Origin: Escherichia coli | GTDB taxonomy: Bacteria > Pseudomonadota > Gammaproteobacteria > Enterobacterales > Enterobacteriaceae | DNA length: 64,000 nucleotides | Reading direction: 5' to 3' (one strand) | NCBI RefSeq assembly: GCF_024700885.2 | Contig: NZ_CP117016.1 | In this document: one piece after another, positions 33,701 through 34,684 of the stretch | Numbering within the stretch: position 1 is the first letter of the stretch | Layout of the letters: each line of letters begins with the position of its first letter | Position numbers and translations under genes: made by a program | The notes under the pieces: model-generated | Databases searched by the model: none | What the model was told of the DNA's origin: nothing | The model's input: the letters and a program-made list of their open reading frames with translations, nothing else

Positions 33701-33740
33701 AAAAAAACCCTTCCGCGTCGTTAGGCCCGACGAGGAAGGG
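33701..33740 (-). terminator. rho-independent terminator after lipoprotein gene, before speB
   Basis: about 13-bp stem (one mismatch) followed on minus strand by U7. Confidence 0.7.
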
Positions 33741-33807
33741 TTGGATTTGCGAAACACAAGTTTGTGCTAATTATCGCCTTAAATGGACGAGGCATCAAGC
33801 GAGGTTG

Positions 33808-34539
33808 CTATTTCCGACACGGTGGCGGCGCATAGCCATTGTTATCTGCCGGAAAGGCTTGTCCAGAGCACGGCGGCATCGCGTTTTGCGCCGGGCCTTG
33901 TAATTCAAAGGCGGCAAAGCCGATTACCCCGGTATTACGCACATCCCCTTGCGCCGAATTGGCTGCGTAGGAATCAGCAACGTTGGCGAACTGAAAAGCC
34001 GCTTCAGTATGTTTATCTTTGCGGAATCCTTTAATCGCTAACGAATCTCCGGCATTCACAATATAGCCTTTGTTATTCTGCGAACCTTGCTTGCCGTTCA
34101 GCACATCCAGGCCATCAACCGTAGCAACGATCTCGTAGTTGGTGTTACGACTGTAATTGCGGACATATAATTGATAATTCATTCCTACTCTGGCATGGAT
34201 AATATAGCGTGGTTCATTATTTGATGAATCATAAACCCGCGTAATAGGTAGAGAATTAAAATTACCATCGCGAATAGCATATTCCAGTTCGTTAATACGA
34301 ATGCTATAAACGCGGTCGTAGCCGGAAGGAACATTAGTCGAATAACTAATAACGATCATCTCTGCCGGATCGCGCCAGACTCGTTCAGCAGATACGCCCT
34401 GAACCGATGAGTGTACATCCCCACCCCAGGCGGTGCCGACATTGCCTGATGCACTGCTATTATACTGCGCATTACTGGAACAACCGGCCAGCAGCACGGC
34501 TAATGCTATCAACGCGCTACGTACTTTCCATTTTTTCAT
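33808..34539 (-). CDS. lipoprotein of unknown function (accessory, between speA and speB)
   Basis: 243 aa; lipobox LLAGC after MKKWKVRSALIALAV; no family recognised; own terminator downstream. Confidence 0.7.
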   Translation of the reverse strand: MKKWKVRSALIALAVLLAGCSSNAQYNSSASGNVGTAWGGDVHSSVQGVSAERVWRDPAEMIVISYSTNVPSGYDRVYSIRINELEYAIRDGNFNSLPITRVYDSSNNEPRYIIHARVGMNYQLYVRNYSRNTNYEIVATVDGLDVLNGKQGSQNNKGYIVNAGDSLAIKGFRKDKHTEAAFQFANVADSYAANSAQGDVRNTGVIGFAAFELQGPAQNAMPPCSGQAFPADNNGYAPPPCRK

Positions 34540-34626
34540 AACCGTTCCCTCTGCATTTAATTAATGCAGCGATTGTAGGGAGATTATTTAATAAGAAAAG
34601 CAACTAAATTATTTTTAAGAATATAT

Positions 34627-34667
34627 AAAAAGAAAGCGGGCCGATTTACGTAAATAAATCGACCCGC
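34627..34667 (-). terminator. rho-independent terminator after speA
   Basis: 12-bp stem (one mismatch) followed on minus strand by UUUCUUUUU. Confidence 0.65.
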
Positions 34668-34684
34668 CAGCGGAATAATCTTAA

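Follow-up and report, generated by a model that had tools for sequence, protein, structure and literature searches.

Small outer-membrane lipoproteins such as Lpp are processed by Lgt, LspA and Lnt and sorted by the Lol system, and in E. coli a lipoprotein with no Asp at position +2 goes to the outer membrane. The C-terminus of Lpp reads ...KYRK, and the protein is linked to peptidoglycan through that Lys. The adjacency of speA (biosynthetic arginine decarboxylase) and speB (agmatinase) in E. coli K-12 is often treated as an operon. In K-12, the two genes are separated by 137 bp and no gene lies there (PMC8674398). Here we analysed a 64,000-nt stretch of E. coli DNA (the window), in which an intact open reading frame for a 243-aa lipoprotein lies between speA and speB. 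The protein shares with Lpp a signal peptide with a lipobox, an invariant Cys, a residue other than Asp at +2 and, in the enterobacterial copies, a C-terminal Arg-Lys. However, it differs from the 58-aa coiled coil of Lpp in having 243 aa and an all-beta domain. A preliminary description of the window had taken the gene for a cassette that splits speA from speB.

The speA-speB locus and its distribution

The gene order in the region is tkt-loiP-speB-speA-yqgB-metK, and the spe genes are all encoded on the minus strand (Table 1). The speA gene of the window is 99.7% identical to the speA annotated in J53 and in O157-type genomes. The spacer between speA and the lipoprotein gene is 145 bp long with a GC content of 33%; it opens with a predicted terminator (T1) and closes with an inverted repeat, so that the AT-rich 5' region with a palindrome reported in the preliminary description is indeed there. 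A Shine-Dalgarno sequence, AGAGGGA, lies 6 nt ahead of the ATG of the lipoprotein gene.

Table 1. Features of the speA-speB interval (positions in the 64,000-nt window)
Feature	Position	Strand	Details and source
speA, biosynthetic arginine decarboxylase	34685-36661	minus	658 aa per RefSeq; mechanical ORF reaches 36673
Variable block	33750-34684		935 bp differing between the two E. coli alleles; ~60 bp instead in K-12-type genomes; alignment with J53
T1, predicted intrinsic terminator of speA	34625-34668	minus	hairpin at 34635-34668; terminator scan and fold
Candidate -10 of the lipoprotein gene	34572-34577	minus	TACAAT; aligned hexamer, inferred from sequence
Inverted repeat	34551-34569		CTGCATT-TAATT-AATGCAG, directly upstream of the lipoprotein-gene Shine-Dalgarno; sequence
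Lipoprotein gene	33808-34539	minus	243 aa, intact ORF, between speA and speB
Predicted sigma-70-like speB promoter	33770-33798	minus	-35 TTGATG 33793-33798, 17-nt spacer, -10 GATAAT 33770-33775
T2, hairpin and U7 in the speB leader	33701-33745	minus	arms 33706-33742, U7 33701-33707
speB, agmatinase	32752-33672	minus	306 aa; ORF list

In K-12-type genomes the lipoprotein gene is absent and the speA-speB spacer is 137 bp, as seen by genome comparison and in the alignment with J53; on this point the preliminary description was right, in agreement with the published interval (PMC8674398). A 1012-bp interval was then compared with 5426 complete E. coli genomes, counting as carriers those with at least 80% of the interval. 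The long, gene-carrying allele is present in 3550 genomes (65%) at 96.6-100% identity, among them O157:H7 Sakai, O26, HUSEC2011, IHE3034 and ATCC 25922, and in every case the gene is chromosomal and single-copy, annotated as 'hypothetical protein', 'lipoprotein' or 'membrane protein'. When the K-12-type spacer was searched in turn, the short allele was found in 1867 genomes, nearly all 100% identical, including J53, HS-derived strains, UMNF18 and BL21-derived strains. The speA-speB locus is a clean two-allele polymorphism, wherein the long allele is the commoner and the more diverse.

The copy in the window is an ordinary allele, 100% identical to that of strain MLI114. Orthologues at the same position, with 96-100% identity within E. 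coli, are entered as ECs_3813 (O157:H7 Sakai) and WP_000758914.1; in addition, we take c3523 to be the orthologue in CFT073, its position being inferred from speB (c3522), and STM3085 is presumably the orthologue in S. Typhimurium LT2. The gene itself is annotated in thousands of genomes as a conserved hypothetical lipoprotein, and the locus is an ordinary one. The preliminary description had set itself against the case that most E. coli carry the gene with a known function. Most of them do carry it, but our literature search found no described function for ECs_3813, c3523, STM3085 or WP_000758914.1, and the sole mention of the gene was one list entry for STM3085.

The ~60 bp of the short allele retain the speB promoter architecture, and show only ~50% identity to the matching 60 bp of gene-carrying E. 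coli. Meanwhile, the long-allele counterpart of these 60 bp is almost invariant across Escherichia species, and a blastn-short search with the K-12 60-mer against every fetched locus gave no match beyond the shared hairpin. The speA and speB flanks of K-12 show ordinary divergence (1-3% in a sliding window). The 60 bp of the short allele are too diverged for the gene to have been lost by a simple, recent deletion from the long allele.

Outside E. coli, orthologues of 240-244 aa with 53-94% identity are located between speA and speB. This order was found in E. whittamii and two cryptic Escherichia lineages, in Klebsiella (two species) and Citrobacter (three), and in Kluyvera, Intestinirhabdus, Phytobacter, Kosakonia and an Enterobacter species; in Entomohabitans the order is kept, with ~1.5 kb inserted between speA and the lipoprotein gene. 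In the case of E. albertii, the contig ends inside the lipoprotein gene and the speB side alone is visible; in E. fergusonii the protein is present. In Salmonella, the lipoprotein gene (74% identical) follows speA, and its stop codon is immediately followed by an inserted island that encodes a GntR regulator and dehydrogenases. Altogether, the gene occupies the same site in at least nine enterobacterial genera other than Escherichia.

Relative to other Escherichia, the lipoprotein gene has a dN/dS of 0.10-0.21 and a dS of 0.09-0.28, comparable to that of speA and speB (0.14-0.33). No terminal or flanking repeats, mobility gene, integrase or tRNA were found in the variable block. A site fixed in at least ten genera, the lack of repeats and a dS like that of the neighbours are not the features of a mobile cassette or genomic island. 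They indicate that the gene is ancestral and vertically inherited, and therefore that the K-12 arrangement is the derived one, in which the gene and the speA terminator were lost. The direction assumed in the preliminary description is thus reversed: the gene is found in 3550 of the 5426 E. coli genomes and in at least nine other genera, and it is K-12 that has changed.

The GC contents of the lipoprotein gene (48%) and of the spacer are below those of the neighbouring genes, and the GC3 of the lipoprotein gene is 45%, versus 62-64% for speA and speB. The low GC3 fits weak codon bias and, equally, an old foreign origin. This lower GC and GC3 is the sole feature of the block that fits a mobile-element origin.

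Terminators, promoters and the speB leader

T1 consists of a 15-bp stem and a 4-nt loop followed by UUCUUUUUAU, and folds with -23.4 kcal/mol (z = -4.1). The hairpin recurs in 13 sequences from ~10 genera, where eight of the 14 pairs show compensatory changes, and is absent from the K-12-type allele. The upstream speA terminator of the preliminary description is therefore a real, covarying structural element at the end of the speA unit, at which termination is predicted. In the long allele, speA transcripts would meet this predicted terminator first.

The inverted repeat downstream of T1 is a weak RNA structure (-13 kcal/mol, z = -2.5), and its CTGCATT-N5-AATGCAG form is conserved within Escherichia only; at this position, the inverted repeats of other genera differ, and pair the Shine-Dalgarno sequence with a CCCT box. 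A TAnnnT hexamer is present at the aligned -10 position in all 13 enterobacterial sequences. For the predicted lipoprotein promoter, no convincing -35 element was found in the spacer, and inspection by eye revealed no convincing sigma-E or sigma-54 motif.

Fourteen enterobacterial sequences and the K-12 allele were aligned between the end of the lipoprotein ORF and the speB start codon. A predicted speB promoter is composed of TTGAxx, exactly 17 variable nucleotides and (G)CGATAAT; in the window it starts 9 nt past the stop codon. Both hexamers and the spacer length of 17 nt hold across Escherichia, Klebsiella, Citrobacter, Kluyvera, Intestinirhabdus, Entomohabitans, Enterobacter and the K-12-type allele, while the spacer varies in sequence. 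A promoter scan independently listed this promoter, whose hexamers match at nine of the 12 positions. Since the conserved promoter is located downstream of the lipoprotein gene, speB probably has its own promoter in both alleles, and by this evidence its expression need not rely on transcripts reading through from speA. The changed speA-to-speB coupling proposed in the preliminary description is not borne out, as the supply of speB transcripts need not change with the presence of the gene.

T2 folds with -26.4 kcal/mol (z = -4.5) and lies ~28 nt ahead of the speB ATG. E. coli genomes have a single copy of T2, the K-12 sequence is identical, and nine sequences from seven genera (including Klebsiella, Citrobacter, Kluyvera and Enterobacter) are nearly invariant, with one compensatory pair. 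T2 is common to K-12 and is downstream of the predicted speB promoter, and is therefore part of the speB leader, not of a cassette. The strong downstream hairpin with U7 described before is thus present but is no part of the variable block. Likewise, both hairpins claimed between speA and speB exist in this strain, but of the two only T1 is missing from K-12.

T2, whose GC-rich hairpin and U7 stand between the conserved predicted promoter and the start codon of speB, resembles the leader terminators and attenuators of enterobacterial biosynthetic operons. However, alignment and inspection of the ~30 variable nucleotides upstream of T2 revealed no anti-terminator pairing and no conserved leader peptide, and the whole speB-speA region gave no Rfam match at E≤1. 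In the window, a GTG-initiated ORF crosses T2; it was rejected on inspection, as it has no Shine-Dalgarno sequence and the K-12 allele has it out of frame or not at all.

The short allele lacks T1, so that speA transcripts in K-12 would continue straight on to the speB promoter and leader. If speA and speB are co-transcribed in K-12, this would then be a consequence of the loss.

The lipoprotein and its family

The N-terminus reads MKKWKVRSALIALAVLLAG-CSS, with a classical LAG-C lipobox, Cys20 and Ser at +2, and has both the signal peptide and the lipobox of a lipoprotein. The lipobox Cys is invariant in 35 aligned homologues, and a lipobox-like motif occurs in 321 of 394 family members. With Ser rather than Asp at +2, the protein is predicted to be carried to the outer membrane by Lol. 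The signal peptide is followed by a flexible linker (residues 21-33), an all-beta domain (~34-213) and a Pro-rich tail ending QAFPADNNGYAPPPCRK. The AlphaFold2 model is all-beta, with a pLDDT of 83.5 and a pTM of 0.74; the tail, at a pLDDT of 61-66, is flexible.

The preliminary description had recognised no family for the protein and had called for profile and structure-based searches; both have been run and returned no relative in Pfam, NCBIfam or the PDB. For Pfam there was no match at E≤10 for the protein and none at E≤0.001 for any of the 35 alignment members; NCBIfam models matched the signal peptide only, far below their cut-offs (for the Lpp models, 12.7 bits versus 108); PADLOC gave no match, nor did the PDB sequence profile at E≤1. 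Over its mature domain, the protein thus belongs to no curated family and to no solved structure in Pfam-A, NCBIfam, PADLOC or the PDB. PF27998 had been flagged for one distant member, and a Pfam search on that member gave nothing. The structural neighbours in AFDB are all unnamed lipoproteins. The MATH/TRAF beta-sandwiches of USP7/HAUSP (2f1x) and SPOP gave TM scores of 0.2-0.3 with 2-12% identity, which is noise level; the all-beta domain here is larger, with ~14 strands, and has no sequence relationship to them.

A profile search over 1.84 billion cluster representatives (50%-identity clusters) retrieved 4256 family clusters at E≤1e-3, 3301 at E≤1e-10 and 559 at E≤1e-30. In Enterobacterales, the family includes members from Providencia, Proteus, Gilliamella and Trabulsiella. 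It is also found in Neisseria, Kingella, Moraxella and Halomonas, in Pseudomonas and Acinetobacter (by the UniProt names of structural neighbours), and in Comamonadaceae, Ralstonia, Burkholderia, Paracoccus, Inquilinus and Polyangiaceae; all entries are named 'hypothetical' or '(outer membrane) lipoprotein'. In the 35-member alignment, 24 columns are invariant across Alpha-, Beta- and Gammaproteobacteria, and the conserved motifs are LGTxWGE, YEIVATVDGLDVLxG, IxGFRK, AAFxF, YAAN, NxGVIGxAxF and the C-terminal AFPxD...YAPPP; W38, R53, E136, D142, R173 and Y191 are among the conserved residues. Distant members carry low-complexity linkers of 100-160 residues between the Cys and the domain; the N-terminal extensions of longer relatives are such linkers only, and no fused domains were found in them.

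Among 80 genomic loci, ORF clustering together with NCBIfam revealed no shared partner gene, and the neighbours are lineage-specific. For example, the family gene lies inside the his operon in Comamonadaceae, adjoins metB and an OmpA-like adhesin gene in Providencia, and is located between thrS and recO in Gilliamella, beside mltG in Neisseria, beside ahcY in Ralstonia, after the hyb operon in Enterobacillus and beside phnE in P. aeruginosa PA7.

The preferred reading, its alternatives and their meaning

Taking these data together, we consider it probable that the ORF encodes a functional outer-membrane lipoprotein, that it was inherited vertically and that it has been situated between speA and speB since before the genera of Enterobacteriaceae diverged. 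The ancestral layout would be speA, T1, a separate promoter region, the lipoprotein gene, the speB promoter, T2 and speB, that is, three adjacent transcription units. In the derived allele, found in K-12, BL21-type strains and others that make up about one third of E. coli, 935 bp comprising T1, the lipoprotein promoter and the gene would have been replaced by ~60 bp with the speB promoter, and in this allele only could speA transcription run straight into the speB leader. In the long allele, transcripts would start near position 34565 (lipoprotein gene) and near 33763 (speB), and end at about 34625 (T1) and about 33701 (T2). According to sequence rules, the protein would be exported by Sec, lipidated at Cys20 and passed by Lol to the outer membrane; according to the model, it would be suspended in the periplasm by a short flexible linker, as a beta-sandwich of ~180 residues with a Pro-rich C-terminal tail. 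Most likely, it may serve the cell envelope as a binding or scaffolding module with no enzymatic activity, as suggested by the lack of enzyme-like homology and the weak MATH/TRAF resemblance.

The link of the lipoprotein to polyamines is weak. It might act together with the arginine decarboxylase pathway, for example as a protein that binds or retains agmatine or putrescine, or one that organises envelope-associated SpeA, with its position under selection. The persistence of the speA-lipoprotein-speB order across ~10 genera would fit this, as would the older literature, in which part of SpeA is reported as envelope-associated. In Trabulsiella, a paralogue with ~40% identity is located two genes from speG (spermidine N1-acetyltransferase; 392 bits, cut-off 218). 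In addition, transcripts of the lipoprotein gene must either stop at T2 or pass it, so that some co-transcription with speB would be likely. However, the core gene order of Enterobacteriaceae is broadly conserved anyway, and outside this family the neighbours are unrelated and different in each lineage. Salmonella parts the gene from speB and Entomohabitans parts it from speA, and the gene is missing from one third of E. coli and truncated in Shigella. We therefore regard a polyamine role as unlikely. An extended version, in which the series from speA through T1, the lipoprotein gene, the speB promoter and T2 to speB forms one functional module, with the lipoprotein, which K-12 lacks and which all functional genomics based on K-12 would thus miss, in envelope agmatine/putrescine handling, T2 as a regulated attenuator gating three upstream promoters and the textbook speAB of K-12 as a derived fusion produced by the loss of the gene and T1, appears improbable as well.

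Another possibility is a tether like Lpp, with its lipid in the outer membrane and its C-terminal ...CRK (...RYRK in Comamonadaceae) cross-linked or bound to peptidoglycan. The C-termini ...YAPPPCRK in Enterobacteriaceae and ...YAPPPRYRK in Variovorax and Acidovorax are reminiscent of that of Lpp, the tail is modelled as flexible, and some relatives have long linkers. However, many family members end in R, W or Y, and the fold is a predicted beta-sandwich, not a coiled coil. The C-terminal Lys, present in the enterobacterial and Comamonadaceae copies, is thus not conserved in the family, and the predicted fold is not that of an Lpp-like peptidoglycan-linked lipoprotein. Since Lys is the last residue in only 73 of the 293 complete C-termini of the family, we rate such a tether as very unlikely.

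There is still less to be said for a strain-specific accessory cassette, inserted between co-transcribed speA and speB and uncoupling them by added terminators. The absence of the gene from K-12-type genomes with their 137-bp spacer, the low GC of gene and spacer and the two predicted hairpins could all be read in this way. However, the gene is the majority state in E. coli, at the same site across all the sampled Escherichia species and at least nine other genera; its dS matches that of the neighbours; repeats, an integrase and a tRNA are all lacking; K-12 has one of the two terminators as well; and a conserved predicted speB promoter lies downstream of the gene. Finally, there is hardly any chance that the ORF is a decaying, non-functional remnant tolerated at the site: the gene is lost in one third of E. 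coli, truncated in Shigella dysenteriae and in some E. coli clusters of 174-181 aa, and faster evolving (53-74% aa identity between genera, versus 94-99% for SpeA and most SpeB), but its orthologues across genera are full length at 240-244 aa, with a dN/dS of 0.1-0.2, 24 columns invariant across three proteobacterial classes and a confident fold prediction.

The family of the lipoprotein spans thousands of clusters across Proteobacteria, including Salmonella, Klebsiella and Providencia, with no Pfam model or solved structure, and it has probably been overlooked because K-12 lacks the gene. For speB, effects of agmatine and cAMP are named in the title of Szumanski and Boyle (1992; cited in PMC1905917), and T2, being conserved and downstream of a conserved promoter, is a candidate site for such effects. 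Meanwhile, the speA-speB adjacency of K-12 is a minority, derived state in E. coli. As K-12 lacks the ancestral speA terminator, what is concluded in K-12 about the co-transcription of speA and speB may not hold for most pathogenic E. coli, Klebsiella or Citrobacter.

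The speB leader

A conserved sigma-70-like promoter (TTGATG-17-GATAAT) lies 5' of speB. Downstream of it comes T2, a hairpin-U7 element of almost unchanging sequence that lies only ~28 nt upstream of the speB ATG and is also found in K-12. By its sequence, the hairpin-U7 looks like a terminator within the speB leader. The speB leader hairpin did not match any Rfam family, and may represent an attenuator of speB that has so far gone unrecognised.

Just 3' of the speB -10 hexamer, at window 33770-33745 and the corresponding alignment positions of other genera, a short palindrome is found in each lineage; two examples are CACAAACTTGTG (window) and CACAATTTATTGTG (K-12). 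As judged from the sequence, its position would fit an operator. The palindrome loosely resembles a PurR box, and speB is among the PurR-regulated genes listed in PMC1905917.

The short allele and the lineage of the window strain

The K-12-type short allele, which lacks the lipoprotein gene between speA and speB, contains a specific stretch of ~60 bp that is ~50% diverged from the equivalent sequence in gene-carrying E. coli, although its flanks are 97-99% identical; therefore, the short allele is not a simple deletion product. Over the speA-speB region, the sequence of the window strain is the same as that of MLI114. When the window strain is compared with an O157-type genome (L002), the dS of speA and speB is ~0.137 (window 32752-36661). 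For two strains of one species this value seems high, and the window strain may come from a deep E. coli lineage.

Family members in other genomes and truncated copies

Coordinates of the compared features
Feature	Location	Strand	Remark
Sigma-70-like speB promoter and T2 hairpin-U7	window 33701-33798	minus	conserved sequence
Short-allele-specific stretch, ~60 bp	L001 (K-12-type) 3078-3137		compared with window 33750-33810
Salmonella island	L004 5733-10732		inserted directly 3' of the lipoprotein stop codon
Second family member, Trabulsiella guamensis	L009 / L034 6001-6759		neighbours to 8498
Acidovorax family-member region	L008 6001-7233		

In the Salmonella locus (L004), the lipoprotein gene and speB are kept apart by an island encoding a GntR/FCD regulator, a mannitol dehydrogenase, a zinc alcohol dehydrogenase and an Ldh_2 protein, and the speB promoter and hairpin are absent 3' of the lipoprotein gene. 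Trabulsiella guamensis has a second member of the lipoprotein family (40% identical) in the order ynfD-[lipoprotein]-ynfC-speG-ynfB, two genes from speG, which encodes spermidine N1-acetyltransferase. In Comamonadaceae (Acidovorax L008 and ~20 Variovorax/Comamonadaceae loci), a family member resides inside the histidine operon with hisD and hisC on either side. An unannotated 129-aa ORF was also seen 3' of the Acidovorax member.

Shigella dysenteriae and some E. coli clusters (P0025, P0036 and P0055) have shortened lipoprotein copies, 150-181 aa long, which suggests repeated decay of the lipoprotein gene in certain lineages.
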